DNA from: Tubulanus polymorphus
Lineage: Eukaryota > Animalia > Nemertea
Assembly (NCBI RefSeq): GCF_964204645.1
Contig: NC_134031.1
Location: forward strand, 9,610,001 to 9,674,000
Direction: 5' to 3'
Length of the DNA: 64,000 nucleotides
Shown: in pieces, positions 18,564 through 64,000 of the stretch
How the letters are laid out: the number at the start of each line of letters is the position of its first letter
How positions within the stretch are numbered: position 1 is the stretch's first letter
Translations under genes and position numbers: made by a program
The notes under the pieces: model-generated
The model's input: only the letters and a program-made list of their open reading frames with translations
Database searches by the model: none
What the model was told of the DNA's origin: nothing

Positions 18564-18649
18564 TTATTTAAAGGAAAATGTTACTTATTTATTTTTTATA
18601 TTTACTTATCCAAAAATAACTACACGTTATATTTTCTGATGTATTGTAA

Positions 18650-40162: not shown

Positions 40163-40660
40163 AACAAGAGCCCCAAGGGGCACTAAGGCCAGCCTGTCAG
40201 CTTTTCATTAAATGACAAATGATGATGCATTCTGTGGGTTAAATTTGTCAAAATACACTCCCAGCTCAGAGTCAATACCAAATAATTCACGCTATACAAT
40301 CGTAGAATACAAAAGTAGCACAGACAGCGAATGGATCTGGCAGGAACAAATACCTCAGATAAATGTTTTCCCTTGGTCTCATTGATTTCAATGCGGAATT
40401 TTCTGGAATTTGCTCAATAAAACGAAATTGAATTGGATTTGATGTTTTAATTTGTTCAAAAAAGTAAAATTGAATTGGATTTGATATTTTTTAGAGAATA
40501 AAATTTGATTGAATTTGTTGTTCGAGCACATGGCTAATTAGCATATCAAGGTCATCGATCCGATTTAAGAAAAAGCTATTTTTCCCGGACTTTGCACAAT
40601 GGTCAATGATATTTTCTGCAGTGCTGATAAAAATATTCCTCCCAAAAACCAAATCAACTA
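40163..40660 (+). mobile_element. Non-autonomous repeat (AACAAGAGCCCCAAGGGGCAC family)
   Basis: Shares its start and internal blocks with 52224-53330; weaker copy at ~39097. Confidence 0.65.
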
Positions 40661-42480: not shown

Positions 42481-44049
42481 TTTAATCGTGTGATCTATAG
42501 AATTCCACCTTTCATTTTAATCACGTTTTAACAACTTGTTGGTACAAAATAACTTCCAAACGAGGCTTAGTTTCCCTTCGGAACTTTTAAAACATTCAAT
42601 GTAGCAATAAAAGCTCTAACCCTATTGAGTTTCATCGGCATCCGTTGCTTATTCATCAATTTGGTTACTTATTTGTTGTTGGAACTACATTTCGTTTCGG
42701 AAGAACACATGCCCTCTTACGTACATTCATGCTTTACATACGTGCCTGACACATATACTCGCAGCTATATGTGGTGTATTGATATGTGCATGTATATGAA
42801 AAGGGCGCCTCGTGCCTGGCCTAGTTAATATTTTGTTGGAAACTGCAAATGATCAACTGCCAGGCTTCGTCGCGGCCGGCCGTGAAAAGCAGTGACGTTT
42901 ATAGAAAGGCTGTAAAATTTGGAAAGAGGGAAGTGAATCTTGGAGATTCAATTTACCAAAATAAATTGTTTAAACTTCGCACACTTCGTGTATAGAAATC
43001 GTCACACCATGAGCGTGGATAGTGTTTTTTGAGTCAGTGGGGAAAACCCACTACCATATACATTCATGATGAATCATCATGCAGTTGTGTGTGATTACTT
43101 GGAGCATGGATTCTCTGATATACTGCCAAAAACTTCATGCCAAAGATAGGTATATGCGTTTCCATTCATAACTCGAAAAAAAGACATTTTTCCTGATACT
43201 TTCCGGCGTCCTTATTTTCGATCTATTGTCTGTAAAAAGTCAGTCTTCTCCCATCATTTGAAGTCAATGCAATAGCTTTCACTATTTTTCTTCGGCCGGG
43301 TGCTTACAATCTCTAATTTAGACTAACAATGTTAAATGTTTATGCTGATTAAACATACACTCATGTAAATTTAGGAAAGTCCATATTAAGAATTTCGTTT
43401 AAGAATATCTTAACCCGATTTCCTTGAAATATTTTACAGGGTTTTTGAAGAATGTCCATCATTGACAAGAATTCCACAATCTGCTTTGTCATGCATGCGA
43501 CAATTAAAAAAATTGTAAGTATAATGTAAGACACAAACAACTGAAAAAAGAAAGACACAAACAACTGAAAAATATAGCTATATCGCAGTGTTGACGGTTT
43601 TCTACTGCCATGGTGTACCCCATATGCTGGTCGACTCATCTCATGAATTTTGACTTCAATGAATTTAAGCAATCAGGAAAAATTTCCTCGGGACTCAATC
43701 TTCCGACCAATTGCCTAGAATATGATCGTCCTAATGCAGCGTCAAGCCTCACAACGACGGCAACTCAGTTCGCTCGAGCTGACTTAAGATGAAATAAGAT
43801 AAGATATACCTTCATTCTTCATTTTACAGTTTGAGGAGGTGCAAAAATTTGGTTATATTTAACAGGGAATATATACACTGATAGAAAGAAATAAAATGTA
43901 TGAAAAATACAATGTTTTACGAACATAAAATTATAACAATAAAATCCCTGAAAAAACTATACATTACAAATTTCAGTAAGATAATTTTTTGAACTGCTTC
44001 ACAGACTTTGTCCATAGTGAAAAAGGCGTCTCCTTACGGCGAATATACG

Positions 44050-44387
44050 AGTAATTAGGAAATGGCGTTTTCATACCTGAGGTCGAGAGGTCGAGACACC
44101 ACTCATCACAGCTAGGCCGAGAACGGTCAACAGCGTTGTGATACACGTATACAGTGAGTGCGCGTAACAACAGCTGCGCGTGGATAGATCGATACAGTGA
44201 GTCGCTACTGAGAACGGTTATTAACGCGTGTGCTATTACTGTAGTACAGTGATTGCGTGTCAGCTGTGCTCGGATAAATAGATGCTGTGAGGCTTGGGTG
44301 AGAACGGTAATAGCGCGCTTGTTATATACAAGGGGAAGTAATCCCTACTCATCACCACAAGTATTTTTTTTCCTTGTAAATGGGAGA
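44050..44387 (+). repeat. Left terminal inverted repeat
   Basis: Reverse complement of 58150-58488 with few mismatches. Confidence 0.97.
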
Positions 44388-47300
44388 GAATAAGACAGAA
44401 CAAATTGATGTTAATGAAAATCAATATTATTGTCCATATTGTAAAAAATACATTGATAAATCTCAAAAATCGCGTCATGAAAAATCTTCAAATCTCAGAA
44501 AATTCCAATGAAAGAAAAGAACGATTAGAAAATATGAATGTGGATGAAATAAAATGTGAAGTTTGTGATGAATTTATAGCAAAAAGGAATTATAATAGAC
44601 ATCTCGAAACACAAAAATACCACCAAAATTTGAGTAATAATGTTTTAGGAAAAGATTATTTTGATGATAAACCTCAACAAGTAAAAAAACCAGCTTCAAA
44701 AACAATCTATTTCAAATAAACCTTACATGGAAAATGATAGAAATTATATTGATTCACTAGAAATAAAAGATTCAATTGAAATATTAGAAACATTACGTAG
44801 TAAAATTGGTCCTGCAGCGATTATATTTAGATTTTTTAAAGGTACAACAATAGAAGATTATATTAAATTTAATTAAATAATTGAAAAAATACTAGATTTG
44901 ATAACAGATGTTGAATATCCAAAAATTAGTATCTCTGGGAAAGTAAGTTTTTTAAAGTCAGAAGAGAAAATGGATTATAATATTCGAACGCTCTCTGAAG
45001 AAATAATTTCAAAAACGCAAATAAAAGAGAAGTTAGAAAAAACATTTAATGAATTTAAACGTCATATTGAAGAAAGATATTTTGAGGGTTCTGGTTTAAC
45101 ATTGAATGAAATTATATTTTTAGATTTAAATGTTTATAATACAAAAAGGAATAAAACTTCAAAAAGTAAAACAATGTTTAAAAATGACTCCAACTTTACA
45201 ACAGAAAAGGATATTAAAGCATCAAGTTATATTAAATTACCATTTACAACAAAAGCGGTAATAAATGTTCAAAATGAAGATAATAAATGTTTTCTATGGT
45301 CAATTAATAGTTGTTTACACCCAACAGAAGATATTACGCATAGTTTTAGAATAACAAATTACCGGAAATATGAAACATTATATAAAATTGATCAATATCC
45401 AGTAACTATAAAAATGATACCCAAAATAGAAAAAATTAATAGTTTAAAAATAAATGTATTCGAATTAATGCAATTACCAAAGACAAAAGGTGAAAATATT
45501 AAAGATTATACATTGGAAGCTTTATATTTAACAGAATATTATGATGATGAAAATGCTATAGATTTGTTATATTACAAAAAAGATGAAAATGAACATTATA
45601 TGTGGTTAAAACAAATTGATTCATTCTTTAGAACAGAAAGTGATTTTATCAGTCATAAAATTTATCTATGTAGAAAATGTTTATCTAAATTTAGAACTGA
45701 GAATGCGTAACTAAAACATAAAGAATTATGTGATAATAAAGATTTTTGTAAATTAATAATGCCAACAGAAAAAGATTATAAATTGAAATTTACTAATCAT
45801 AAATTTAAGAATATTGTTCCATTTGTAATTTATGGGGATTTTGAATCGTTGAATAAAGAATTAACTGATCAAGATAGAAAAGAAATATATAACAAAAAGC
45901 AATTATCAAATCAATGGATAAACGAAATGAATTAAATGAAGACACAACACAAGACCCGCCAATTATAAATATAATTAAAAAAGTTCATCAAAGAGCTGCT
46001 GCTTATGGAATTTACATCAAATCAAATTATCCCGAATTATATGAAAGTCAATATATTTCTTTTAGAGGTGAAGATGTAGTTAATGATTTTTGTAACAAAA
46101 TGATTGAATTAGAAAGTGATTTTGCAAAATTATTAAACAAAAATAAAAGAATAGTTATGACAAAAGAAGATGAAATTGATTTTAATTATGCAACTCATTG
46201 TTGTTATTGTGAAAAACGTTTTTATTCATTTGATAAAAAAGTTAGATATCATAATCATTTAAATTCAAAATATCGTGGAGCTGCTCATGAAGATTGTAAT
46301 TTACAAGCTAAGAAAGTTAATTTCGTACCAATATTATTTCATAATTTATCAGGCTATGATACCCATCTATTTATAAAACAATTATCAGGGAAATTGGGCA
46401 CAATTAATCAAGAAATAGAAGAATATAATGCTATGAATGGTGTAAATGTAAGAAAATATGATTTTAAACTATTAGCTAAAACATCCGAAAATTATATTTC
46501 ATTTCAATTTGGTTGCATTAGATTTTTAGATTCTTATAGATTTCTAGCAAGTTCATTAGATAATTTATCAAAAAGTTTAGTTGATAATGATTTTATAATA
46601 ACTCGATATTATTATCCAAATGAACAAGATTTTAAATTATTGAGATATAAAGGTGCAATTCCTTATTCATTTTAAAAAACACACAATGATTTGAATGTAA
46701 CAGAATTATTAAAAGATCAATTTTATGATCAATTAAAAGAGGAGTATGTGAAAGATGAAGTGTTTAATAGAACATTAAATATTTGGAACCATTTTAAGAT
46801 GAAAAATCATGGTGAATTAGTTGATTTATATTTAAAATCAGATGTTATGATATTGGCTGACATATTTGAAAAATTTAGAAAAGTTAATTTGAATCATTTT
46901 AATGTTGATCCTTGTTATTGCTACTCTAGTCCTGGTTTAACCTGGCAATGTGGTTTAAAATACACAAATGTAGAATTAGATTTATTAAAAGAACCAGACA
47001 TGGTTTTATTATTTGAAAAATCAATTAGAGGTGGAATTAGTGGTGTTATGGGAGATAGATATTTTAAAGCAAATGATGAATATAAATTATTATATATTGA
47101 CGCCAATAATTTATATGGTTGGGCAATGATGCAACCTCAACCATACAAAATTTTTATATTAACAGAAGTTGAAAATGGTGATAAAACTGATTGGGAAAGC
47201 GCAATTGCGAGTTTAAAAGATGAAGCACCAATTGGTTATTTCTTTGTAGTTGATTTAGAATATCCTGATAACATAAAGTTTAAAACAAGAAACTTACCTT

Positions 47301-49279
47301 ATTGCCCAGAACATTTAGCCGTAGATGATAGTTATTTAAGTGAATACCAGAAGAAAATAAAACCGAAAGATCATGTTTTTACAGAAAAATTAATACTTAC
47401 TCAAAATAATAAATACAATTATATTGTTCATTATAGGATGTTAAAATTTCATCTAAAACAAGGAATGAAATTAAGGAAAGTACATAGATATATTGAATTT
47501 AATCAATCGAAGTGGTTAGAAAAATATATAGATTTCAATACTCAAAAGAGAACCATATCAAAAACAGATTTTGAAAAAGATTTCTTCAAATTAATGAATA
47601 ATAGTTTGTATGGTAAAACATGTGAAAATATTAGAAATAGAAATGATATTGAATTAGTAAATAATTCTGAACGATTAAGACATTTACAATAAAGTCCTAG
47701 ACATTTAGGAAATAACAGATTTGAAGATTATTTAACAGCAGTTAAATTAAAAAGAACGTCAATGAAATTTAATAAACCTATATTCATTGGTTCAACTGTT
47801 TTAGAAGTATCAAAATTAATAATGTATGATTTTTATTATAATGTTTTACAACCACTTTTTGGGGAAAAGCATATTGAAATATTACATTTTGATTCTGTAA
47901 CAGCTGACACCCCAATATTATTAAAATGTAATGATAAAATATTGATAAGAAGAATTTCAGAAATAATTCCAAAACAAAATGAATGTTATATTTCATATGG
48001 TGAAAAAGAATTGATACAAATAAATGGTTTAATGGATGTTTGGACAAGAAATGGATGGAAAAAATTAAAGAATATTATTAGGCATAAAACAAATAAGAAA
48101 ATCTATAGAGTTAGAACTAAATTAGGGTTTGTAGATGTTACAGAAGATCATAGTTTAACTAAACGAAATGGCGATGAAATAAAACCAACTGATATAAAAA
48201 TTGGAGATGAATTATTACATAAAAGATTTTTCCCAAGACTGAATCATATGTCATTCGACGAAATTATTGATAATATTTATAATATAGAACCTGAAACATT
48301 AGAAGAAAAAGAATATTTTGTCTAAGGATTTTTCATGGGTGATGGTTCAGCAGGTGTGTATAAATATGTTAATCGCACTCAATATTGCTGGTATTTATGC
48401 AATCAAGATTTGAAATTATTAGAAAGAATAAAGAAATTCTGTGAAGAAGTTTATTCACATAAAACATTTAAAATCATAGATGTTATGAAATCATCACAAT
48501 GTTATAGAATACATGCGAATAATACTAAAGATTTTGCAATTAAATATAATGATGAATTCTATTTTCATGCAATAATGAAAAGTAATACTTCAACTAAAGA
48601 AAAGATAGTTCCAGATAATGTATTAAATGCAAAATATAATTTAAGAAAATGGTTCTTCATTGGATTCTATACTGTAGATGGTTCAAAAAGTTTCAAAAAC
48701 CGCAAAAAAGGAAAAGTTGCTATATCAGGATTGAATATATTATGCAATTCATTAGGTTTTAATATGAATATTGGATTGATTAAATCTAAACCAAGTTGCT
48801 TTAATTTAAGCCATGTAGAAAATGAGTTAACAGAAGAAGTTAAAGATTTATTTGAAATATATAACCAAACAGATTATGTTTATGATTTATCAACTGAAGA
48901 TGGCACATTTAACTGTGGATTTCCATTAATTGCGTTCAATACTGATGCGTACATACTAAGAATCAAGACAAATGACATAACAAAAGACTTGATTGAATTT
49001 GTTGGGATAAGAAGTAAAATGTATAGTTACAGAACAAAAGATCATGAAGCTAAAAAGTTAAAAGGAATAACAAAACATGTGGTTGATAAACATATAGAAT
49101 TTCAAGATTATATAAGGTGTTTATATAACTCAATTGTTATGAAACACAAAATGAATTGTTTAAGATCAGAAGATCACGAGATGTACATTAATGAAGTTGA
49201 AAAAACTAGTTTGAATCCATTTGATGATAAAAGGCATATTTTAGATGATGGTATAAAAACATTACCTTATGGTTATTAA
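44380..49279 (+). pseudogene. Protein-primed DNA polymerase B (Zn fingers, putative TP/vOTU region, EndoVII-like insert, exo and pol domains) containing an intein
   Basis: NVQNEDNKCFLWS/EHYMW; YGDFES (ExoI); CCYCEK...RGAAHEDCNL; FHNLSGYD (ExoII); YLKSDV (ExoIII); YIDANNLYGWAM (A); KLMNNSLYGK (B); HFD|intein|TDA (C); KKLKGI; several stops and frameshifts. Confidence 0.96.
47894..48940 (+). other. Intein (349 codons) with LAGLIDADG homing endonuclease at PolB motif C
   Basis: Block A SVTADTPILL; block B VDVTEDHSL; LAGLIDADG YFV*GFFMGDGS and FFIGFYTVDGS; block F YVYDLSTEDGTF; terminal Asn followed by Thr+1; one in-frame TAA at 48323-48325. Confidence 0.93.
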
Positions 49280-49327
49280 AATGGATCAATATCATCAAAC
49301 TCGAAATCACTATTGGTTTCTCATTTT

Positions 49328-49588
49328 TCATTTTAATTGTTCTTGTATAATTTGTTTAGGTTCTTCCATTTCATTTTTCTCATTTAAATAAAGTTCTATC
49401 TTGTACCACATTTCATCTCGCTCTCTTTGTTTCTTTTTGTTCGTTAATTCATCAAATGGAATTATAATATCGATGTTTAAATAATTTACAATCTTATTTA
49501 AAAAGAATTCATAATTAATTGAATCTGTTATCCTATTATCCACATAATATCTCAATAATTGTTTGAATGTTTCTTTTATATTTTCCAT
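49328..49588 (-). CDS. Polinton hypothetical protein (possibly the tail of the upstream Zn-finger gene)
   Basis: 86-aa ORF convergent with PolB, within the element. Confidence 0.45.
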   Translation of the reverse strand: MENIKETFKQLLRYYVDNRITDSINYEFFLNKIVNYLNIDIIIPFDELTNKKKQRERDEMWYKIELYLNEKNEMEEPKQIIQEQLK

Positions 49589-49893
49589 ATCTTCTTATAA
49601 ATATAATAAATATAAATACATTTTCTGTTCTTGTGTTAAATGTTGATGGAATAATTGTTTTCATTATATCTTTTTTAGTTATTTCACCATTTTCATTTTC
49701 TATTATTTTCATTTTTTCAAGCCATTGCTTATATTCTGGTGTATGATCTTCCGTAGAAAATATCTTAAATATTTCATCTAGATATTTTAATTTTGGTTCT
49801 ATAAGAATATTTCTAGTTTTTTCATCACCCTATAAATTCTTTTGCCATCCACATTCATTACAAAATATCACAGGACCTTCTTGTCTTAAGTAC

Positions 49894-50574
49894 TCATAAA
49901 TACATTTTGGGCATTTCTTGTCTATCATTTCTTAGTAATAGATCTTCGTTAAGCTCTTGGTATTTTCTTACGTTTTCTTTATGTCTTATTGTTCTATTAT
50001 GTAGATTTGAATTACTTGTTGTAATAATCAATTTACAATATTTAGAATAATATGTTTTTCTTGTTAATTCATTATATTGTTTTTCTAACTTTTCAACTGT
50101 TTCTTTATTATCTGGTAACGTTTTCTCATATTTCATTTTTTCTAATATATTATTTTTTCTTTCATTGAATTCTGCTTCAAATTTATTAGAAATTTTATCA
50201 ATATGTGCTTTACGAAATTGATGATTCTCCCAATCTTCTATATTTTCAGGGTTATATTTTATTCGACAAGGCTCACAGAAATGATATTTTATATTATCCT
50301 TGTCATAGAATAAGAAAGGTCTTTTCCAAATAATTTCAGATTCAACTTCAACAGAATTACTATTACTTTCATTACTATCAACATTAGCCGTTGCGCCATT
50401 AATTTTACACTTATCTGAATGTTTTTTAACATAATTTCTTGAGAATAATTTATTACATTTTGGGCAGTTTAGTTTAGGGGGTTTATAATTTTCATTATGT
50501 TTTTTCATATGTCGAGCCATATTACTTTTTCTTAGAAGTTCACCACAAATTTCACATCCTATCTTCTCATCCAT
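49894..50574 (-). CDS. Polinton multi-C2H2 zinc-finger protein
   Basis: CEICGE...RHMKKH, CPKCNK...KKHSDKC, CEPC...HQFRKAH; TAAATG start. Confidence 0.75.
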   Translation of the reverse strand: MDEKIGCEICGELLRKSNMARHMKKHNENYKPPKLNCPKCNKLFSRNYVKKHSDKCKINGATANVDSNESNSNSVEVESEIIWKRPFLFYDKDNIKYHFCEPCRIKYNPENIEDWENHQFRKAHIDKISNKFEAEFNERKNNILEKMKYEKTLPDNKETVEKLEKQYNELTRKTYYSKYCKLIITTSNSNLHNRTIRHKENVRKYQELNEDLLLRNDRQEMPKMYL

Positions 50575-50642
50575 TTATTAAGGAAAAATTTTATTAAAAT
50601 TAATTTTTAGTGATGAGCGGTAATTTTTTTATGTTATAAATA

Positions 50643-51316
50643 ATGGTAGAAATAAAAGAATATACAATATTTGTTGATTCAAGAAAACTTACAAATTATA
50701 AATCTCATAATTTAATAGTACAATTAGATAGAGAATTTAAGAATTGTGTAGATTTAAAATTAGTAAATATAAGTTTCATCTATTTTTAAAACCAGGGTTA
50801 TATAATGTAGAAACATTGGCCCAAGAAATTAATCGGAGAGCACGATTAAAACTTGGAAGTGAAGGTAAATTTTCAATTAGATTTATAAAAAGTGATAGTT
50901 CTGATAAAATTAAAATAAAGTTAGATGATGAAAGCAAACACGCATTTATGGTAAGGAAACCTTTAGCTAAACTGTTAGGGATTAAACCACAAACTGTTAC
51001 AGGAAACGTAGACGGTAATTCAAATATAATACCTTTTACACATTTTTATATTTATTGCAATTTAATTGATCCTACAAAAACATTTGAAGCAACTAAAGAT
51101 ACAACATGTAATTCTAGTATATTAAATATTTTACCATTGAAGAATGTTAAACAATTTGGAACGCAAATAAATTATAATTTAGCTGAATGTGATTTTAAAC
51201 CTTGTATTCCTCAATTTAATAATTTTAAATTAGAAATAAGAAATCACAATGGATATTTAATTGATTTGAATAACTTTCCTGTAATTTATGAATTAGTTAT
51301 AAGATGTAAAGAGTAA
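50643..51316 (+). pseudogene. Minor capsid protein (penton, single jelly-roll)
   Basis: N-terminal TIFVDSRKL; C-terminal HFYIYCNLID...ILNILP...FKLEIRNHNGYLIDLNNFPVIYELVIR, typical of Polinton pentons; frameshift/deletion near 50765. Confidence 0.8.
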
Positions 51317-51332
51317 TTTTTTTGATATGTAA

Positions 51333-51689
51333 ATGAATATAACTGTTGGGCCGAGTATATGTTTTGGGTTTGATTTTAAACGTGAGAAAGAAATGAAATT
51401 CAACATTAATGATGTAATAACACATATCAAAAATATTGCATTTTCTAATGAAACAACATTTGAGTATGAAACAACAATAGATAAAGAAACTTTAAATGTA
51501 GAAAAGATTACTTATTTAATTAGAGAATCTTTAAGATTTTATGAATTAGTTGAAGATTTTATCATCGATGATATTAAAAAAATAATAATTGAAATATATA
51601 CAAATGAAACTAGTAATGAAATAAATGTTGAATTAATCGTAAATAAGATAACTAAATATTTTGAAGATAGTAATTTTTTTGATAAATAA
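51333..51689 (+). CDS. Polinton hypothetical protein
   Basis: Intact 118-aa ORF with TAAATG start; decayed homologue at 60991-61332. Confidence 0.7.
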   Translation: MNITVGPSICFGFDFKREKEMKFNINDVITHIKNIAFSNETTFEYETTIDKETLNVEKITYLIRESLRFYELVEDFIIDDIKKIIIEIYTNETSNEINVELIVNKITKYFEDSNFFDK

Positions 51690-51910
51690 ATGAGTGATAA
51701 TAAGTGGATAATAACTGGAGTATATAATGGAGCATTACTATCAGTTGGAACTGTTGGTTATTCAATGGTATTAAAAAAGTATTTAAAATGGGAAGTGTTA
51801 ATGTTGATAGATTTGATATAAATGATATTTTAAAATTAACATTAGCAGTTACTTTATCTAATTTAACTATTGATTATTTGGAAAAACAAAAATATATTCC
51901 TCCCATATAA
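51690..51910 (+). pseudogene. Small two-TM Polinton protein
   Basis: MSDNKWIITGVYNGALLSVGTVGYSMVLKK...DILKLTLAVTLSNLTIDYLEKQKYIPPI, with one frameshift. Confidence 0.6.
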
Positions 51911-51934
51911 ATACATAATTATTTTGCTAAATAA

Positions 51935-52223
51935 ATGGCTTCTGCAGTTATAACTATTATAGGATCGGCAATTGTTAACGCTTTAGCATTTACTGGTGGT
52001 GGTTATTTATTTAAGCATATTGATAAAAATGGTTCATTAACAGAACAAAAAAGACATAACTTAGCATTAGAAAAATACAATTAAGCAGCAGAAGAATATA
52101 GAGAAAAGAGGCAAAACTATATGGATTATATTAACAAGGAATTATATGATCAGAAGATTTCACAAAGAGATTTTCAATCAGTTGATGATGCAATGAGTGT
52201 ATATAACGCGGTAAGCAATAAAG
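51935..52223 (+). pseudogene. Polinton protein with hydrophobic Gly/Ala-rich N-terminus + coiled coil (MASAVITIIGSAIVNALAFTGGGYLF), truncated
   Basis: Manual translation; one stop at ~52082; cut by the insertion at 52224; the missing tail is seen in the copy at 14116-14322. Confidence 0.7.
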
Positions 52224-53330
52224 AACAAGAGCCCCAAGGGGCACAATGGCCAGCCTGTCAGATTTGCTTTTTATAAATGATGTAATCTGTGGGTTATATT
52301 TATCAATATACACTCCCTGCTCAATATCATTTACATAGTAAAATCGTGTGTTAACACAGACAGCAGGAACGAATGTAATATAGAAATACTAAGTTATTGT
52401 ATTGTTCAACGCCCCCTGGTGGCCATAAAAAAAAACAATGAGCTTGAAACTCACCTCGATCATAGAACATGTCATGAGCTACAACTTTCCAATTGATTAT
52501 AGTAGCAAAATATGCTTAAGTATCAATTATGATGTGGAAAAACTTTTTTCCACCTACGAATGAGTACTGATGACCCCAAGATGGCGGCCAAGTGCGTCAT
52601 AATTGCCTGGTCAAAAATACCCTCTCGGATATAAAAGATCCCTTTCCAAAGAATACCCATTACAAATTGCAATGAAACATGGCGCACCATTAGAAAGCTA
52701 CAGTACTCAGAATTCAGGCCAAAATTGACATTTGTGGGAACAAAAAAGGTCACAGTACGGCCATCTTGAGTCCGATCGACTCAATTTTTCTCATGCCGAT
52801 GGGCCCTCGGGGGATACAAATATATACGAATGATCAAGGTTATTGATAAAAGCGTCTTCAAAATTTCCCTCGAAAACTTCAAAAATGTGTAAAAAGTGCA
52901 GATTTTGGCGAACAACAATGGCTGCCAGTCGGCCATCTTGAATCTGACAGGGCCAGTTCTTGGCCTGAAGATGTGTCTAGTGTAGATACACGTATAAAAC
53001 AAATATCAAGACATTACCTTGAAGCGTCTTCAAAACTTTGGAACTCTCACGAACTATCTAAATGGTTATCTCTCGACCTCAATAGCTTCAAGACCCATCT
53101 CAAAACAACTTTGTTCCATGCAGCATACCATTAACTCTCGGAAAGCGAATTGTATTTAACATTTTTTGGCAGAATAAAATTTGATTGAATTTGCAATTCG
53201 GGCACATGGCTAATTAGCATATCAAGGTCACACACCCGATTTGGTAAAACCTTTTTTCGCGAACCTTGCGCAATTGTCAAGGATGAATTTTCTGTAGAGC
53301 AAATAAAAATTCCTCCCAAACACCAAAACA
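52224..53330 (+). mobile_element. Non-autonomous repeat insertion replacing ~3.2 kb of the Polinton
   Basis: Same family as 40163-40660; higher GC; Polinton coding resumes at 53331 (QDKVKDG). Confidence 0.75.
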
Positions 53331-53553
53331 CAAGATAAAGTTAAAGATGGTGTAAAGAAATTAGCAAAATATTTATGGGAACTATCTAAAAAATCTGCTG
53401 CAGCTTTACCAGGAATTATTGCATCAATTGTTGGTTTTATATTGAAATCTGCTGGGAATATTCTTAACTTTGCTGCTGAACATATTATTTTATTTTTAAT
53501 TACATTTGTAAGTGCTATTATGTTTGGGTTAGTAAACAAAATCAAAAATAAAT
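53331..53553 (+). pseudogene. C-terminal end of the Polinton coiled-coil/amphipathic gene
   Basis: QDKVKDGVKKLAKYLWELSKKSAAALPGIIASIVGFILKSAGNILNFAAEHIILFLITFV, matching ORF 10787-11869. Confidence 0.8.
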
Positions 53554-53571
53554 AATTTTTTTGTAAAATAA

Positions 53572-54817
53572 ATGAGTGGGAGTTATATGAATCCTTCTAA
53601 GAATCATAGAATATCTAATGCTATTAAAGCAGAAAGATCTCATCATATAATTAGTCATAACCCTTCAAATATTAATCCCGATGAAACTTTATATGTTAGA
53701 ATCCCTAGATTAACACAAAATACTTTTTATGTTCCAAATAGAATTTATTTAGCAGCCGATATAAAAGTAACTGGTAATAATAATAATTAGTTGTTGATAA
53801 TATTGGAAGATATTTGATTAAAAAATTAACTATAAAGATCGGTCCAGAAACAGTTTTCTCATTAGATGATTATAATTTATTTATGCATTATAAAGATTTA
53901 TGGTTAACTAAAGAAAATAGAAATAATATGATATTTCAAGGAATCCAATCAGAAAACCAAAATAAATTAAGATCTGAAGCCAATAATGCAGTAGTAGCTA
54001 ATGACGTAGATAATTTGATTAAAAAGATTTATGGAAGCAAATATAAAATTCCATTAGACTTTGAATTGATAAATAATAATGCACCTTTATATAATATGCA
54101 ATTCAAGAAGATATTATATTTGAGATAACATTTGCTCCTGTAAATGAAATTGTATTATCTAACGTTGTTAAAGATATGGATTATAAATTATCGAATATAT
54201 GTTTAGAATATGATACAGTAACTAATGAAAATATTGCTAACACAATTCAAACTCAATACAATCAAGGATTTTCATTATTATATGATTATATTGATAAATT
54301 TAAAACTGTAACTATAAATGCAAATGATGAAATAATTAATGAGAATATTAACTTCCCAAGAAGATCTATTAAAGGTATATTAATATTTTTTACTTTTGCA
54401 ACATATACTAATGGAGCAATAAAGGTAGATAAATATTATAATCCTGAAATAACAAAAGTAGAAATAACTATCGAAAGAATAGCAAATAAAGTATTTTGTC
54501 AAGGAATGAGAATGATAGATCAATGGCCAGAAATTAGAAAACATTTTATGAATGAAAAAGTAAACTCATCTGAAAATTGTAATATTAATCAAATTGATTA
54601 TTATGCCGGTAATAAATATGTATTATGGTTAGATTTTAGAACAACAGAGGATAATTCATCACATAGTTCTGGGAAAAAACTACAGAACACTAAAGACGGA
54701 ATACAATTATTCATGAAAAAGAAAAAAGGAAGCTTAGATTTTAAAATGCACATTTATATTATATCTGACCCACAATTAAATATTGTAAATTCACATTTAG
54801 ATAGTATTCAATATTAG
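53572..54817 (+). pseudogene. Major capsid protein (putative double jelly-roll, ~415 aa)
   Basis: Beta-rich ~415-codon gene next to INT/ATPase (NPSNINPDETLYVRIP...LEYDTV...LWLDFR...MHIYIISD); one stop and one frameshift; three copies in the window. Confidence 0.8.
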
Positions 54818-54847
54818 AAATATAAAGTTAAAATTAACGATATATAA

Positions 54848-55869
54848 ATGGGCGGTAAAAAACTCCTTATACTAAAGAACAATATTTAAGAAATTTATAT
54901 TACAACCCTGAGAGTTCAGTTGCTTATTCTACCAAAAATATATGGCGTCAAGTAAAACAAGATAAATTAGATAAGATAATGCCACAAAATTTAGTTAAAT
55001 ATAAAGATATAAATGAATTTATGTTTGAACAACCAACATATACAACACATAAAAAAATTGCTAGAAAATATAAAACTCGTAAAACTATGGTAAGTTATGT
55101 AGATCAACAGTGGCAACTAGATTTAATTGATATGAAAAATGTTAAGAAAGATAATGATGATTATTGGTGGATATTGAATATAATTGATATTTTTAGTCGT
55201 TATGTATGGAGTTTCCCACTTTATAGAAAATATGCTGCACAAACATCAAATGTTTTAAGAAAATTTCTTTCGGATGATAAACTTAAACCAGAAAAAAATA
55301 CAATTTGATGATGGAAAAGAATTTGATAATTCACTTGTTCTTGAACTCTTAGACAATCATAATATTGAATATTTTTCAACAAAATCGGATAAAAAAGCAG
55401 CAGTTGTTGAACGATTTAATAGAACATTAAAAACAAGAATGTGGAAACCTATTGATGCTAGAAAACCTGAAAATGCTGAAATTGTTTGGAATATGGGGCA
55501 TTTCTTGTAGATGATTTTGGTGAACCTAAATTTAAAGTTGGTCAAAATGTTAGAATTTCTAAGTATAAAAAGATATTTGACAAGGGATACGATCGAAATT
55601 TTACTAGAGAAATATATAAAATAAAAAAGGTAATAACAACAAAACCATATGTCTATAAATTAGAAGATTTAAATGGTGAAGAAGTTGATGGGTATTTTTA
55701 TGAAGAAGAATTGAGTTTAACTACTGAAAATCTAGAACAAGAATATAAAATTGAAAAAGTATTAAAAACAAAAACTGTTAAAAGAAAAAAATATTCTTTA
55801 GTAAAATGGGTTGGATGGCCAGATAAATTCAGTGAATGGATATTATCAAGTAAAATTAAAAATATATAA
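54848..55869 (+). pseudogene. Integrase with chromodomain
   Basis: WQLDLIDM / IQFDDGKEF / VVERFNRTLK; YKIEKVLK...LVKWVGWPDKFSEWI; frameshifts and an internal deletion after RMWK. Confidence 0.93.
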
Positions 55870-56476
55870 ATGAATAAGGAATTATCTATATTTGAACCTC
55901 ATAATATGTTAATTTCTGGCGTAACAAATTGTGGAAAAACTTATTTTATATTAAATTTATAAGAAACTGTTTATAAAAACTATTTTGATAATATAGTATT
56001 ATTTTGTCCAACATATGAATTTAATCAAACTTATGATAGAAATATTACTAGAAATAATAAATTTATTATATTAGATCCTAAAACAGTAAAAGAAAATTTA
56101 GATAATTGTATAAAAATAGCAATTGATATATATATATAAAGGATCAAATACATTATTCATTATAGATGATTGTGCAAATTTACATGATTTAAAAATTAGA
56201 GAGAGTGAGTTATGTTACCTAGCTTTCTCTGGCAGACATTTTGGGATAACAACATGGGTTTTAAATCAAAAATATAATGTTAAAGATTTTAGAGAAAACA
56301 TTAGATTTTTAGTTTTATTCTACAATAAAGATGGAAAATCGATGAAAAATGCGCTTGAGGAAAATGATATTATTCCACATGATTTACGTAATGAATATAT
56401 AGATAAATTGAAAAATAATAAAAGATCAAAATTACTATTTAGATTACAACACCCATTTAAATATGAATTTATTTAA
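55870..56476 (+). pseudogene. A32/FtsK-like packaging ATPase
   Basis: GVTNCGKT, LFIIDDC, GRHFGITTWVLNQ. Confidence 0.92.
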
Positions 56477-56750
56477 ATTCAACTGGCTTGTTAATCTATT
56501 ACATATTTAGTTACATTCTAGTTGAATTCTAGTTATTGGTATTTGAAACAAAAATCAAATAAAATTCAACAATATTTTAACTAGCTTGTTAATCTAGTAT
56601 ATTTTTAGTTACATTCTAGTTGAATTCTAGTTATTGGTAGTTGGAACAAAATCAACTAGATTTAACAAGAAATAAATAAAAACAATAATAATTCAACTAG
56701 CTTGTTAATCTAGTTTAATTCTAGTTGAATTCTAGTTAAATTCTAGTTGC
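56476..56750. repeat. ~11-bp array (TTCTAGTTGAA) with inverted TTCAACTAG copies, downstream of the ATPase
   Basis: Three higher-order blocks containing ttctagttgaattctagtt and attcaactag. Confidence 0.8.
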
Positions 56751-56780
56751 AACATCACAACTAATTTTTTTGTTATATAA

Positions 56781-57386
56781 ATGGGAGGTGAAAAGAAAAT
56801 AAAATCTAAAAATGGTGATGTTCCAATTGAAAAAACTTTAGATGATTTAGGAATAACAGAAACAAAATTAACTCCAGATGATGGTTCTTTAAATAATGTT
56901 ACAACAAATAATAATTATGAATATTATCTTTATTGTAAACATCAATTAGAAATATTAATAGCATCTGGAAAATGTAAAAATTTTATCGGTAAAAATTTAA
57001 CTTATAATGAATTAGATACAATGAAATCAGATGAAATGATTAGATTATTTAAGATTTATGAAACCGCGAGAACAGCTAGAATTAATGATGCGATATCAGA
57101 AAATGTAGTAAAAGGTTATAGTAAATTATGTAATTATATGCTGCCAATTCAAGATGAAAATAGATTATATGCTGATTTAAAAAATGATTATTTAGTTATG
57201 ACTGAATTAAATAAATGGATTGGATATTTATCATTTCAATTAGGCGGATTTATGACATTATTATCAACTGGAGTTATAACATTTTCAAATATTGAAAGTA
57301 AAAATATTGGTATAATAAATGAGCGAAGTGGAAGAAGTGAAGGAATTAACTGTGAAGAAAAAACCGAGAACTCAGAAACAAATTGA
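56781..57386 (+). CDS. Polinton hypothetical protein (201 aa, hydrophobic C-terminal helix)
   Basis: Intact ORF with T-tract + TAAATG start. Confidence 0.7.
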   Translation: MGGEKKIKSKNGDVPIEKTLDDLGITETKLTPDDGSLNNVTTNNNYEYYLYCKHQLEILIASGKCKNFIGKNLTYNELDTMKSDEMIRLFKIYETARTARINDAISENVVKGYSKLCNYMLPIQDENRLYADLKNDYLVMTELNKWIGYLSFQLGGFMTLLSTGVITFSNIESKNIGIINERSGRSEGINCEEKTENSETN

Positions 57387-57687
57387 ATGGTCTCGGCAAT
57401 TAGGAATTAAATCACAAGAATATAAAAAAGCTGTAAAAGAAAAAATAAGTAATCAAAATGTTAATAAAAATGGTGAAAATATTGTTATTTCTAGTTCTTC
57501 TAATGAAAGAATATTTGATAAATGTCTATATTTTACAATTGGATTTGTAATTGTATTCATTTTGATTGGGCGTAATTGGTATAAGAAATCAAATAAAATT
57601 CATGATATTAATAATTCTGAAACAACTGCTATTAAAAATGAAAATACTTCTGAAATTCCAAAATTGACAATAAAAAAAATGGATTAA
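57319..57687 (+). CDS. Polinton basic protein with one TM helix
   Basis: KKKPRTQKQIEWSRQLG; TM CLYFTIGFVIVFILIG. Confidence 0.7.
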   Translation: MSEVEEVKELTVKKKPRTQKQIEWSRQLGIKSQEYKKAVKEKISNQNVNKNGENIVISSSSNERIFDKCLYFTIGFVIVFILIGRNWYKKSNKIHDINNSETTAIKNENTSEIPKLTIKKMD

Positions 57688-57837
57688 TATTTTAGAAAAA
57701 AAGCAAAAAAAATAATTTTTTTAAATTAATTGAATATCTCACTACTTTTGTCTATCTATGCGGAGCAATTAAATTGTCCAGATAAGTCATTTTGGATTCT
57801 AGATATTCATTATTTTTATTAATTTATTTTTTTTAAT

Positions 57838-58157
57838 TTAACCAACAATTTCTAAATCATGATGGCCATCTTCATCTTTTCCATGATAGATTATTTTAAA
57901 TCCTTCTAAATCTTTCAATTCCTCTGTACTCAATGAAACCCATATATTAGGTAAAAATACTTTAAATTCTGGCGATGTACTAACATTGCAGTAGCTTAAA
58001 TTAGCTGATACTTTCTATCCATATTTAGTTTTTATCTTTTCTAATTTCAATATTTTATGTTCAATTTCTTTTGTAACATCAACTAACTTTCAAATTGTTT
58101 TTTTGCTGGTTTTATTCTGTTATTTATTGTTGCTAAGAATGCTTTTCTATCTCCCAT
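57838..58157 (-). pseudogene. Small Polinton protein, putative OB-fold ssDNA-binding, starting inside the right TIR
   Basis: Manual translation MGDRKAFLA...KLVDV...KIKTKYG...FKVFLP...IIYHGKDEDGHHDLEIVG; homologous to 59874-60213. Confidence 0.55.
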
Positions 58158-58488
58158 TTATAAGGAAAAAAATTACTTGTGGTGATGAGTAGGGATTACT
58201 TCCCCTTGTATATAACAAGCGCGCTATTAACCGTTCTCACCCAAGCCTCACAGCATCTATTTATCCGAGCACAGCTGACACGCAATCACTGTACTACAGT
58301 AATAGCACACGCGTTAATAACCGTTCTCAGTAGCGACTCACTGTATCGATCTATCCACGCGCAGCTGTTGTTACACGCACTCACTGTATATGTGTGTCAC
58401 AACGCTGTTGACCGTTCTCGGCCTAGCTGTGATGAGTGGTGTCCCGACCTCTCGACCTCTGGTATGAAAACGCCTTTTCCTAATTACT
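58150..58488 (-). repeat. Right terminal inverted repeat
   Basis: Reverse complement of 44050-44387. Confidence 0.97.
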
Positions 58489-58787
58489 TATACGAAGCTC
58501 GCAATTTGTTTTTGAACCTTCTCTCTGTAAAGACGTATGTTTTGCTTCCCTCTTGGGCCGAACAAATTCTACGCCCATAAGTGACCAGGAAGGCAGCATT
58601 TTCTTTTTATAGGGGTCAGGGTTTAATTCGACTTTTCTTTTAATAATGTTCCTGGATCTATTTCGTGACCTGGAACTATTTTCCACTGAAGGATCCTTGG
58701 ATACAAATAATGAGTGTTAAGTTTTGGGGTGTTGATTGAGCTGGTTAGTCGCAACACAGAAAAAAAATCTGCACGACTTTCGTTCAC

Positions 58788-58893: not shown

Positions 58894-59345
58894 AGTAATT
58901 AGAGGTTGTTTCATACCAGAGGTCGAAAGGTCGAGTGAATAAAAACACAAATATAAGTAATTTTAATTCCAAACTATAATATATTTTCATAGTCGTGTGT
59001 ATAGATGCAAATAATCTATATGGTTTGGCAATGATGGAACCACAACCTTATGGAGTATTTGAAATATCTGAAATTTTACAAATGATAAATTTGATTGGAA
59101 GAAAAGAATTCTAGACATTAGATATTGCAGATGATTCAGATACTGGATACTTCTTCGTTGTAGATTTAGAATACCCTGAACATATTAAACTTACATCTAG
59201 AAATCTATCATACTGTCCCGAACATAAAACTGTTACACATGAAGAACAAACAAATTATCAAAAAATGATTAAACCTGACAATCATATTAATACAGAAAAG
59301 TTAATGCTGACCCAGGAAGATAAATATGATTATGTAGTACAAGTT
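58894..59345 (+). mobile_element. Polinton terminus joined to a PolB fragment
   Basis: AGTAATTAGAGG...TCATACCAGAGGTCGAAAGGTCGAG, then IDANNLYGLAMMEPQPYG...GYFFVVDLEYP. Confidence 0.8.
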
Positions 59346-59648
59346 CCTAAAGTGCTCAGAAACGTCCAAATCACGACGAATTTTATGAAAAGACGGAATC
59401 CTTTTCGAGAATCCTTTTCGTCAGTCCGTTTTTCTGTATGATACCATCCGGTTCCAAAATCGAATTAGGCAAAAATAACGCTGAAATTTACAGGGAAGCC
59501 AGCCCATATCAGCATATAGAAAAGACAAAAGCGTAAGAGGGTTCATTCGTAAGTAGTTTCGACATGCTCTATTTTGTACTCGATCAATTTTCATCGAGTC
59601 TCTAAATCCCCATACTTCTACACTACAATTTAGAATTTGATCGACTCC

Positions 59649-61332
59649 AGTAATAGGGTATACGTCTTTTCATACCAGAGGTCGAAAGGTCGAGTTCATA
59701 AAAAATAAATTCTCGCATGCTCGAATTTATTTATTATTTTTTAATCACTCAACCTTTAAACCTCTGATATGAAACAACATATACCCTTTTACTCGAATAT
59801 TTATATATATGAACATTATATAAATGAATATTATATTAATGAAACCAATTTTAATAAAAAATATGTATAATAAATGGAGAGTAAGCAAATACACAGTGAA
59901 TTTCTAGCTAGAATTAAAGATACCACAAATGTCAAATCTGTAGATTATAAATTCAAAAAGTTAACAGAATTAACATTACATAAGAAATATTTTATTACAA
60001 ATATTGAAACAATTACTAATAGATATGGTAATAAATCAGTTATTCACTTAGAATATGAAGGATTAAAAGGTAATAAATATAAATTCAGAACATATTTACC
60101 AGATAGATTTCATAGATTATCTAGTGAAGATCTAGAAGAAGTGTTCTGGTGATTTCTATTTCATATATAAGGGTAAGAATGAAAAAGGGCACCATGATAT
60201 AGATTTTGAATAAGGATATGCTAAATAAATGGTAGAATTAAAAGAATATAGAATATATGTTGATTCTAGAAAAACTTACAAATTATAAATCTCATAATTT
60301 ACTAGTACAATTAGATAGAAAATTTAAGAATTGTGTAGATTTAAAATTATTAAATATATGTTTATGTAATTCTTTTCGAATAAAAGTCTTGATCATTAAG
60401 CTTTTAAAATTTATATTAGAAATTTGAATAAATGGTTTCATCTTTTTCTAAAACCAAGATTAATTTAGAATCATTAGCGCAAGAAATTACTAAAAGAGCT
60501 CGTTTAAAAATGAGCGCATCTAGTAATTTTAAATTAAATTTAATAGAAGTGATAGTTCGAATAAAATAAGAATAAAAGTAGGCAATGAACAACATAGATT
60601 TCTAGTAAGAAAACCTTTCGCTAAACTGTTTGGAATTCATCCAGATAAAGATTATTTAAATATTGATACTTATACAAATATAATACCTTATACACACTTT
60701 TGTATTTATTGCAATTTAATTGATCCTACAAAAAACATTCGAAGCAAATAAAGTTGCAATTTGTAATTCTAGTTTATTGAATATTTTACCATCAAAAAAT
60801 GTTAAAGAATTTGGAACACAAATAAATCATAATTTAGCTGAATGTGATTTTAAACCTTGTATTCCACAATTTAATAATTTTAAATTAGAAGAAAGAAATC
60901 ATAATGGATACCTTATTGATTTAAATAACTTTCCTGTAATTTATGAATTAGTTATAAGATGTAAAGAGTAATTTTTTTAAATGTATAAATATGAATATAA
61001 CAGTAGGACAGAGTATATGTTTTGGATTTGATTTTAAACGTGAAAAAGAAATGATATTCGATATTAATAATGTTATATCACATATAAAAAATATTGCATT
61101 TTTGATGAAACAACATTTGATTATTAAACAACAATAAATAAAGAAACTTATAATGTAGAAAAGATTACTGATTTAATTAGAAATTCTTTTACGATTTTAT
61201 GAATTAGATGAAGATTTTATTATTGATGATATTAAAAAAATGATAACTGAACTATATGAAAATGAAACGAATAATGATATAAATGTTGAAACAATTATAA
61301 CTAAGACAACTAATTATTTTGAAGATAATTAA
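59649..61332 (+). mobile_element. Partial Polinton: fold-back terminus (59649-59793), SSB-like gene (59874-60213), penton (60229-60971), hypothetical gene (60991-61332)
   Basis: AGTAATAGGGTATA...ATACCCTTTTACT; homology to 57838-58157, 50643-51316 and 51333-51689. Confidence 0.82.
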
Positions 61333-61349
61333 TTACACACAATCTAAAT

Positions 61350-61772
61350 TACTGAGTGAAGACATTTGACTAGTAATTAATTATCTAAAAACATTGAGAA
61401 TAAATCCTGACCCGTGTTCGAATTAAGGGAGGGCTGTTGAGTTTTGATGAAAAGTGCTTCATCAATTTTGCAATCTAAATCAGAGGAACCTTTATCTAAA
61501 ATTTTGAAATTCTTTTCGCTAAACGAGACCTGACAGTAACGGCAACTTGACAGATGTTGGCCAATTGCTGAAGTCTTAGGTTTGTTTATAGAAAAGCTTC
61601 TAATACTGGATTACTTTTGAACTTTAATGCAATGTCCTTACAAATGGAAAACTGGTCTTATCAACACGATTTTTTTTTCGTGCATACAATATATGCAGCA
61701 ATTGGAACATTCTTACGGAAGAATTTGATTTTCTAAAGAAATTATTCAAACTTAATGGTTATCCTAGCCATG
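61350..61772 (-). mobile_element. Penelope-like GIY-YIG C-terminal fragment
   Basis: Minus-strand translation SAIGQHLSSC...NFKILDKGSSDLDCKIDEALFIKTQQPSLN. Confidence 0.6.
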
Positions 61773-61774
61773 TT

Positions 61775-61929
61775 AGTAATTGGAAAATGTGGGTTTCAGA
61801 TCAGAGGACGAGAGGTCGACACATCACTCATCACCGCGAGGCACTAACGAAGACGGTCGGAAACGTTGTGCTATTACAGTAGTACAGTGATTGTGTATCA
61901 GCTGCGCTCGGTTAGATTGATGCGGCAGG
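61775..61929 (+). repeat. Truncated Polinton TIR related to the 44050 family
   Basis: AGTAATTGGAAAATG...AGAGGACGAGAGGTCGACACATCACTCATCAC...GTAGTACAGTGATTG aligns with the 44050 TIR. Confidence 0.75.
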
Positions 61930-64000
61930 AGTAATAGGGAATAAGTTGTTCTAGATCAAAGGTCGAGAGGTCGAGCTCACTCTCCCTCTCAACCTTTAAT
62001 GTAGAACAGCTTATTCCCTATTACTCCTAATAATTTCATATAAATGAACATTATTTACATGAATTTCCTATATTTTAATATATATAGTTCATATTTTAAC
62101 AGATTTCGAATAAAAATATAAGTAAAATAAATGGATAACTAAAAGAATATAAAAGTGTGAGTAAAGTGTGAGTGAAATAGTTTATATTTTAAACATATTT
62201 CAATATTTATATTTGTATGAGTTAGATTTTCAAACATAAAACGTGTGAGTAAAGTGTGGTTGAAATAATTCATATTTTGACATTGAATATTTATATTTGA
62301 ATGAGTTTTAATGGAAGTTTTGTTATAAAAATGAAGACAGAAGAAGAAGAACCCAAATTCAAAATCGAAATAAAAGAAACCAATAAATTATTTACACAGT
62401 TTAACATTAAAAATTATATCTCAGCAACAAATTTAGTGTCCGCAAGACATTATAAAATTGATAACATAACTATGATTAATCAAATATCATCAAGTGAAAC
62501 ATATTTAATTACTGAACTAGTAGATACTTTTGATAATGGTGTTTAAAATCCTAAAATGTTCAATACAGTTTTAAATTTTAAAGGAACTTTAGATGAAAAC
62601 ATAATAAATATTCTTCAAACTCCTTTCAATGAAAGAAAAAGTGATACAATACTTTCTAAAGATTATAATGATTTGATTAACTTAAGAATTAAAAAAAGAC
62701 AATTATATTATTTCAATTTTGATAATAAACAAATTATCTATAATGAAAATCTTCAAATATTGGTATTCAATGTGAATTAGATAATGAAAAATCATTCAAA
62801 GATGTTGCAGTTCAATGTAATTTAGATGATGAATTTAGAAAATTCAATCCTAATGAAAAAGTGTATTGTTATTGTGGTGGCAAATATTCAAAATCACATA
62901 AATCAAAGCATTATCAGACAATCAAACATATCGAATATGAAAAGAATAATAATTCTATATTAAAATTAGATTAAGCTGTATGACTAATTGGAAAATTTGA
63001 AATATCATAACTCAAAAATAATAATTCAACTCTAAATATTCATATTCAAAATAAGATATTTCAAATTACTTTTAATTTTTTTCTTTAAATAAATGGATGA
63101 TTTCAGCATTCCAATTGGGAAAAGTGATTTGAAGCATTATTTAGTTGCAGGAGGATTAATATTGGCTGCACTTTTCTTTTACTATGAGAACATTTCAAAA
63201 CATAAAAATATAAAAACTGATAATATTCAGCATGAAATAATTAAAACTTATAATGATAATAAATCACATGAAAATACTAAATTAGCTATAACTTGTATAG
63301 GTATTATAATAGGAGGAATATTATATTTCAAATTTTAATTTTCATAAGATATAAATGGATGTAGAAGGTGAAGATATTTCAATGGATACTTTAGATGAAC
63401 CTGGTATAATTGATGAATCACATCCTGATTTTAATGAAACTAATATTGATAATGAAGATGATACAACATATAATTCTAATTTAGCAGATAGTGGTTCAAA
63501 AGATCCATCAACAGACGAGTTTGATAGAAGAACTAAATCGAGAATAAATCCTGAAAATGATAATCCAGATTTAGTAAAACAAAATTTAGAATATAAATAA
63601 TATATTTATCATTTCAGACCTAGATTTGAAGAATCAGGATATAATATAAATGATAGAGGTGCTAGATATTTAGTAAGAGAATTAAAATCTTTAGATGATG
63701 AATATTATTATCATTTAAAAGACGATTATTATATTTATATCTTATAAAAAACAAAATAAAATATTAGCAGAATCAACTTTGAGTAATTTCGAACCATCTA
63801 GTATTAAAAGAAGTAATAGTAATGAAATAGAAAATGTTACCGACGCAGAAATAAAGAGAAATAAAAGATCATTTCATCTAAGAATTGATCGTTTATTTGA
63901 AACAATTAACAATGATTTAGAAACAGAAACAACTTCTAAACAGAATATAACTTCCAAAACTAGTAAACTTAAATCAAGAAGCGTTCAAACTGAAAAAACC
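61930..64000 (+). mobile_element. Partial Polinton starting with a fold-back terminus (61930-62025); hypothetical/Zn-finger genes, TM gene 63093-63338, coiled-coil gene from 63355 running off the window
   Basis: AGTAATAGGGAATAAG...CTTATTCCCTATTACT; 63093 ORF ends like the 12262 ORF; 63355 ORF is homologous to the 12245 ORF. Confidence 0.78.

Follow-up and report, generated by a model that had tools for sequence, protein, structure and literature searches.

A Pol-c-type intein in the protein-primed DNA polymerase of a Polinton element, and its intact and empty relatives

The window (the whole 64,000-nt stretch of DNA that was analysed) raises the question of whether the insert that splits the catalytic motif C of a Polinton DNA polymerase gene is an intein and, if so, whether its kind is mobile, where it came from and whether its host is an animal. 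In the available text of three papers, eukaryotic inteins are placed in fungi, algae, protists and large DNA viruses (PMC5784728, PMC7765530, PMC10710043). According to the accessible part of PMC5784728, these large DNA viruses include iridoviruses, so inteins in animal-infecting viruses are already known. The sequence-only reading of this locus knew of no well-described case in a protein-primed Polinton polymerase of a metazoan genome; nor was an intein found reported in a Polinton, a protein-primed polymerase (pPolB) or animal nuclear DNA in the full-text literature, a scope outside which most subscription journals, Repbase, InBase and most supplements lie. The available portions of PMC12220804 and PMC13768754 likewise hold nothing on Polinton or animal-nuclear inteins.

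The element that carries the insert is 14,439 bp long (44050–58488) and has the Polinton hallmarks of terminal inverted repeats, a 6-bp duplication and a pPolB gene, while the integrase, ATPase and capsid matches are weak and fall on broken ORFs. The Polinton host proposed earlier is thus borne out. The features of the element are listed below.

44044..44049, no strand: left 6-bp target-site duplication, TATACG, the same hexamer as at the right end
44050..44387, plus strand: left terminal inverted repeat, starting with AGT; 330/338 aligned bases (98%) match the right repeat
44422..49279, plus strand: pPolB gene (PF03175, E-value, 1e-21, over the cut-off; tblastn with the intact relatives P0400/P0402)
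49894..50574, minus strand: zinc-finger ORF of the Polinton (weak C2H2/U1 zinc-finger matches under the cut-off)
50741..51316, plus strand: ORF, possibly of a minor capsid protein (no Pfam or PHROG match)
53572..54817, plus strand: frameshifted major capsid protein gene (PF16903 Capsid_N, E-value, 0.0019, under the cut-off, on 53787-54128)
54859..55869, plus strand: frameshifted retroviral-like integrase with chromodomain (rve, E-value, 0.0012; Chromo, E-value, 5e-5; both under the cut-off)
56120..56476, plus strand: part of an A32-type packaging ATPase gene (Pox_A32, E-value, 0.007)
58150..58488, minus strand: right terminal inverted repeat, pairing with the left one
58489..58494, no strand: right 6-bp target-site duplication, TATACG

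The tentative assignment of the ORF at 50741..51316 to the minor capsid protein is one made by eye. The integrase region has a 67% DNA match to 5306-5855, whose ORF matches rve at 3e-7, and the ATPase has a 78% identical paralog at 6375-6782 with an above-cut-off match to Pox_A32 (E-value, 6e-7). A simple pattern scan of the element found no motif match to a maturation protease of the adenovirus type (lost, decayed or missed), and PHROGs returned no match for 10 ORFs. As described in the main texts of PMC8502044 and PMC11131425, so far as available, animal Polintons/Mavericks (adintoviruses) share with the window element the inverted repeats, the 6-bp duplication, and the pPolB and integrase genes, along with the putative ATPase and capsid genes that the weak matches here suggest; those texts mention no intein, and the window copy yielded no protease gene. 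Several other Polinton fragments, decayed and in part nested, occupy 5300-19100 and 58900-64000 of the window and are 67–87% identical to the 44–58 kb element. Three other Polinton polymerase fragments in the window stop before motif C. A higher-GC stretch inside the Polinton (~52000-53330), part of which matches 40472-40656 at 82%, is probably a nested host repeat.

Within pPolB, an insert of 1047 nt lies in frame with the polymerase gene. Its junctions and motifs read ILHFD / SVTADTP...TEDH...GFFMGDG...GFYTVDG...VYDLST...LIAFN / TDAY, where a slash (here and below) marks the border of intein and extein. Its parts are as follows.

47894..48940, plus strand: intein, 349 codons, from Ser1 to the terminal Asn, between the first Asp and the Thr of motif C
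47894..48220 (right end approximate), plus strand: N-terminal splicing region with block A SVTADT (TIGR01445 on residues 2-88; strands of the structural model)
48140-48151, plus strand: block B TEDH, inside the N-terminal splicing region
48299..48793 (ends approximate), plus strand: LAGLIDADG homing endonuclease domain (motifs; I-DmoI-type fold matches)
48326-48346 and 48662-48682, plus strand: LAGLIDADG motif cores GFFMGDG and GFYTVDG
48836..48940 (left end approximate), plus strand: C-terminal splicing region (block F VYDLST, block G GFPLIAFN)
48941..49279, plus strand: C-extein, beginning with Thr+1 and lacking 39 codons near 48990

Profile searches revealed that the N-terminal intein region model TIGR01445 matches the window intein with 30.5 bits against a cut-off of 24.5. 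PF14890 matches it with an E-value of 2.4e-6, which is under the gathering score, and passes the cut-off in the relative P0041. None of the Pfam LAGLIDADG profiles matched in the window copy; in the intact relatives P0039, P0041, P0043, P0047 and P0190, PF14528 is over the cut-off. An AlphaFold model of the window intein, built from a 14-sequence alignment and with a mean pLDDT of 70, has as its five best PDB matches by Foldseek PI-PkoII, PhoVMA, TliVMA (twice) and PI-PfuI (E-values, 1e-12 to 3e-10), all of which are endonuclease-bearing inteins; among viral models, giant-virus DNA polymerases match best. All class 1 residues are present (Ser1, block-B Thr/His, block-F Asp, terminal Asn, Thr+1), as had been claimed from the letters. 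The four closest polymerase relatives (71–83% identical) are intein-free and read YFD-TDSY across the insertion site. Removal of the insert restores D-T-D; the joined motif of the window copy would be D-T-D-A and not D-T-D-S. The insert is a real LAGLIDADG intein and not a chance resemblance, and its site at D/TD of motif C and closest similarity to other Pol-c inteins identify it as one of Pol-c type. In intact copies, the intein is predicted to splice out and thereby restore the polymerase active site.

The pol-c allele is defined, and the mimivirus PolB intein placed at YGD/TDS, in the accessible text of PMC549080. With the mimivirus and archaeal PolB inteins treated there, the window intein has in common the motif C site, Ser1, the terminal Asn, Thr+1, the block-B Thr/His and a central LAGLIDADG domain. 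Identity to metagenomic inteins of giant-virus type is 35–45%. The host polymerase differs, being protein-primed (PF03175) here and of the PF00136 type in giant viruses and archaea; the flanks differ as well, with HFD, YMD, ASD or YSD/TD in pPolB and YGD/TDS in giant viruses. Unlike the hosts of giant-virus and archaeal Pol-c inteins, the Polinton integrates in a nuclear genome, in many copies.

In class 1 inteins, a penultimate His is usual but not obligatory. The window intein has Phe at this position, as had been pointed out, and the residue is rare: the 27 pPolB inteins that were extracted (see below) have His in 21, Lys in 4, Ser in 1 and Phe in 1, the last being that of the window and of no other pPolB intein. 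The other, giant-virus-type inteins lack the His in 77/167 cases and have Phe in 1/167. The penultimate His thus appears dispensable in this intein family, and Phe an uncommon substitute, a rarity that counts against the preferred reading of the insert.

The window copy itself is decayed. The TAA at 48323-48325, directly 5' of the first LAGLIDADG core, is indeed the sole stop inside the intein; the earlier account of a single TAA does not hold beyond that. Compared with its closest intact relative, the intein also lacks 6 codons immediately past the second LAGLIDADG motif, and the polymerase has stops outside the intein at 44874, 45708, 46673 and 47690. Comparison with intact relatives by tblastn added at least 3 frame changes and the 39-codon deletion in the C-extein near 48990. 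By its sequence, the window element is therefore a broken fossil in which polymerase and intein have both decayed.

Reads from a genomic run under the same species label were used for a view of the other copies (12% of one run, with likeness down to 80% counted). Only 196 of the 3159 reads on 47740-49100 are at least 99% alike, which indicates a multi-copy family. At the intein stop codon, some 97% of reads disagree with the window, and the alignments of 197 and 111 reads end loosely at 48990, so that neither the stop nor the deletion is a family trait. The mean depth of 431 ahead of the intein drops to 247 within it, a ratio that gives no allele frequency, as reads down to 80% likeness were counted. 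Reads span both intein junctions continuously. At precisely 47893, 90 reads depart from the reference, and in two reads 1052 bases are missing and 5 others stand in their place, a net skip of 1047 nt. Intein-bearing and intein-free alleles thus coexist under one species label. In a small share of a marine metagenome run, 13 pieces match the window, 9 of them being less than 90% alike, which is too small a sample to point to a habitat.

Protein searches returned 37 near-length and 331 longer proteins (of the latter, the best 120 are considered here), and among the matches listed the best are pPolBs, including P0039, P0041, P0043, P0044, P0047 and P0190. The intein of P0039, in an uninterrupted ORF of 1693 aa, is 62% identical to that of the window. 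From 398 proteins, 194 complete inteins were extracted, 27 of them in pPolB and 167 in other proteins. All 27 pPolB inteins sit at D/[T or A]D, and all have the C-terminal motif GFPL, compared with 25/167 of the others; Ser1 is found in 194/194 and Thr+1 in 193/194 of the extracted inteins, counts that are partly built into the extraction pattern. The 120 closest polymerase relatives comprise 89 intein-free proteins, 4 carriers, 11 unclear cases and 16 that end short of the site. Among the 15 members listed of the P0041 cluster (136 members) there are seven full-length carriers, five empty proteins and three fragments. Two pairs display the full and empty states side by side: the carrier P0241 and the intein-free P0244 share 99.2% identity and are set apart by a single gap, at D/TD, and the carrier P0041 and the intein-free P0231 share 97.8%, again with one gap at D/TD. 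Some carrier and empty records lie on contigs of up to 1 Mb. The intein-plus and intein-minus alleles that the sequence-only reading proposed to look for are therefore represented by these two pairs and by the reads that leave the reference at 47893. The pPolB of P0043 has no significant BLASTP similarity to the window type (best E-value, 0.40), and its intein is 49% identical to the window intein; on these comparisons the same intein seems to be present in a second, unrelated pPolB class, represented by a single record on a 5.3-kb contig for which an assembly chimera is possible.

Other searches yielded few or no further carriers. IMG/VR scans with P0039, P0047 and P0041 gave no relative, and the N-terminal part of the window intein as a query gave 17 viral loci, none with a pPolB extein. 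A degenerate pattern of the C-terminal motif found 4 viral loci (one giant-virus MAG intein and three without intein) and 33 metagenome loci, of which one (L046) is a pPolB carrier and nearly all others are of giant-virus type; its one prokaryotic locus was rejected, since the pattern falls there by chance on the strand opposite to another gene. The record P0409, which bears a bacterial label, has a window-type pPolB and was set aside as a probable mis-bin. The ESM Atlas gave general LAGLIDADG-intein clusters only and no animal cluster. Some matches lie in other hosts. P0059 (residues 267-620) and P0255 have a Pol-c-type intein in a PF03747 (ADP-ribosylglycohydrolase) protein at GGD/TDT, a non-allelic site that mimics YGD/TD, and the type II topoisomerases P0141, P0146, P0147 and P0155 match the intein query over 98–100% of its length at 31–33% identity. 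P0153 is the intein of Chloropicon primus DNA polymerase delta, published in PMC10710043, in the part available.

Evidence bearing on mobility comes from the flanks. P0041 and P0231 show 26 differences in 1191 columns, 9 of which fall within 40 columns round the site (p 4e-8). The flanks of the carriers, CHYMD/TDSFVLSVNT, equal those of carriers in another family, whereas the empty sisters and the outgroups P0416 and P0477 share a different C-terminal flank (/..MVLSIKT). Such foreign flanks in carriers have the signature that co-conversion in homing would leave; escape mutations in empty alleles could contribute to the flank differences. On an N-extein tree of a chosen subset (43 rows, 13 carriers), intein presence and absence requires 8 changes, compared with a shuffled mean of 11, and all of them are forced by well-supported branches. 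Both LAGLIDADG Asp-Gly cores are retained in 15/15 carriers checked, the exteins of which are mostly 40–60% alike between families. A family with intact members, empty alleles and apparent signs of homing goes beyond what had been read from the window. Two observations on the site may be added. The flank IIYGD of P0039 (residues 1176-1183) resembles that of giant-virus PolB, where intein-free relatives have YMD, YQD, YTD or YLD, and is possibly a relic of an imported flank. The intein-free Polinton polymerases P0416, P0477, P0511, P0491, P0442 and others have D/CDS instead of D/TDS, possibly as homing-resistant alleles.

With regard to origin, an IQ-TREE tree of 63 chosen inteins, with 12 pPolB representatives, joins the latter in one clade (100/100) inside the giant-virus-type Pol-c inteins, several nodes deep, and this clade adjoins giant-virus-type inteins with the GFPL motif (93/85); its outgroup is one long branch and its bootstrap had not fully settled. 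The Pol-c site and the kinship to giant-virus PolB inteins were rightly anticipated by the sequence-only reading. A FastTree run, unlike IQ-TREE, did not place the pPolB inteins with the GFPL group, and in AU tests neither a position of the pPolB inteins outside giant-virus diversity (p 0.247) nor a sister relation between P0043 and the remaining pPolB inteins (p 0.29) was rejected. Of the GFPL carriers, L019 is on a contig labelled as a giant-virus MAG and L034 on a gene-dense contig of 27% GC with a PF00136 PolB. The third-position GC of the window intein (0.155) equals that of the N-extein, and related inteins occur across several Polinton families, so the gain looks old. We consider it probable that the intein was gained once, long ago, and that its donor was a Pol-c intein of GFPL type in a giant-virus PolB, with the direction from giant virus to Polinton favoured but not statistically forced; of the earlier proposal of a gain from a co-infecting large DNA virus, the kind of donor is supported, whereas the age suggested does not look like that of a recent co-infection in this host.

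Whether the host is an animal has to be judged from the rest of the window, which contains these features.

1800-4540, plus strand: broken hAT transposase (PF05699)
20000-21800, plus strand: decayed Penelope-like retroelement (reverse transcriptase, HTH_animal-like and GIY-YIG-like parts)
23719-23851, plus strand: exon-like LRR N-cap with AG and GTAAGT borders

All 22 PDB matches listed for the LRR N-cap are animal LRR proteins (best E-value, 0.006, decorin), and a scan of the window for 72-nt LRR exons yielded no other convincing candidate. The ESM Atlas look-alikes of the Penelope-like ORF carry PF26215 HTH_animal (score 0.97) and are mostly from rotifers and nematodes; the name Penelope is our own reading of the motifs. 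The flanks of the Polinton are long and gene-poor, with a microsatellite; as a point to the contrary, Pfam gave no match on 102 host-region ORFs. On balance, the contig very probably belongs to an animal. The animal genome, taken as given in the earlier reading, is made likely by the N-cap and the Penelope-like ORF and retains the status of a deduction.

Overall, it is likely that a Pol-c intein at the D/TD site of pPolB splices and homes among sister Polintons when intact, and that the window copy is an animal-genome fossil of it. By the class 1 chemistry, established according to the available text of PMC7765530, an acyl shift at Ser1, helped by the block-B Thr/His, would give an ester, Thr+1 would attack and take over the N-extein, and the terminal Asn would cyclise, with D-T-D rejoined. 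The polymerase would be inactive without splicing, and replication of an intein-bearing element would therefore depend on it. In sister elements that share the nucleus, the endonuclease would cut the empty motif C DNA, into which the intein would be copied during repair. Homing of this kind would take place between Polinton copies and families, with co-conversion of ~5–10 flanking codons and repeated loss.

Two alternatives concern what the insert is and where it resides. A non-splicing nuclease domain fused into the polymerase, or an assembly chimera, would account for an inserted endonuclease, and Polinton pPolBs with inserted HNH or VSR nuclease domains are in fact described in the accessible text of 10.1101/2023.08.22.554363 and PMC11071308; a nuclease domain in a Polinton polymerase is what they share with the present case, and PF14890 stays under its gathering score in the window copy. 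Those insertions, as far as described there, have no Hint domain and stay in the mature protein, whereas here a complete intein with a Hint fold and an above-cut-off TIGR01445 match parts the two catalytic Asp codons, Ser1 and Thr+1 are all but invariant (partly by construction of the pattern, as noted), and reads cover both junctions continuously, which makes this explanation extremely improbable. If, on the other hand, the intein is real but its host is a protist, another eukaryote or a symbiont contig, the finding would extend the inteins known from protist endogenous viruses. Such inteins are reported, in the part of PMC10710043 available, from endogenous viral elements of Klebsormidium, Tetrabaena and Hondaea, together with that of Chloropicon Pol delta; like the pPolB intein, they are virus-derived DNA polymerase inteins on eukaryotic nuclear scaffolds, but they reside in RNA-primed polymerases, either giant-virus-like or cellular, from algae and a labyrinthulid, and the main text and two searchable supplements, so far as accessible, contain no Polintons, animals or metazoans. 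The absence of Pfam matches on the 102 ORFs, the abundance of Polintons in some protists (10.1101/2023.08.22.554363, in the text available) and the marine metagenomic source of the nearest giant-virus-type inteins would suit a non-animal host. The N-cap exon with its AG/GTAAGT borders and exclusively animal PDB matches, the rotifer and nematode look-alikes and the long gene-poor flanks with a microsatellite argue against it, and we regard it as very unlikely.

The other two accept the intein and differ on its history. It may no longer be mobile, having entered once in an ancestor and been inherited and lost since, with ordinary recombination behind the mosaic flanks; among window-type pPolBs, intein identity roughly follows extein identity (e.g., 62/59, 78/76), and the GC3 of intein and extein is the same, as would be expected. 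This history is rendered quite unlikely by the 8 changes needed on the extein tree, the foreign flanks centred on the site (p 4e-8), the endonuclease cores conserved in 15/15 and the same intein in an unrelated pPolB class. Alternatively, the direction may be reversed or the source a third one, if Polinton-like elements held Pol-c inteins early and exchanged them with giant viruses. The AU test (p 0.247) is compatible with this, as is the position of the GFPL giant-virus inteins as a sister group and not a paraphyletic grade (66/96). It is nevertheless unlikely, given the far greater diversity of giant-virus-type Pol-c inteins (879 clusters at E<=1e-30, the best 150 of which are mostly of RNA-primed PolB types) and the position of the pPolB clade, which lies several nodes down in the best tree.

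With the mobile Pol-c intein of giant-virus origin as the preferred reading, what has been found is a canonical Pol-c intein whose host class is new; there is evidence that it moves across Polinton families, and its setting is likely an animal nucleus. Contact between Polintons and giant viruses, long suspected and thinly documented, is recorded in the intein clade that they share. A single sentence in PMC11071308, as available, suggested in 2024 that nuclease insertions in pPolB result from intein invasions, and the pPolB intein is a real case for that suggestion; the accessible text of 10.1101/2023.08.22.554363 has no match for intein, Hint, homing or LAGLIDADG. Since the intein splits the catalytic motif and active carriers must splice to replicate, it may serve as a protein-level marker of Polinton activity, and since homing requires that full and empty genomes meet in one nucleus, tracts of conversion would record contact between Polinton families. 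If the host nucleus is that of an animal, a heritable multi-copy intein would move the known boundary of eukaryotic inteins, and the barrier would lie in the lack of a suitable host gene and of the opportunity for homing, not in an inability to splice. The chances are evenly balanced for the joint, more far-reaching proposition that the intein lineage is homing today among dozens of Polinton copies in an animal germline, jumping between polymerase classes that share little beyond motif C, and is the first case of an intein that splices itself, spreads itself and is inherited in the nuclear genomes of animals. If true, Polintons would be the bridge by which giant-virus inteins reach animals, and homing may be the force behind the varied motif C flanks of empty alleles, as a means of escape.
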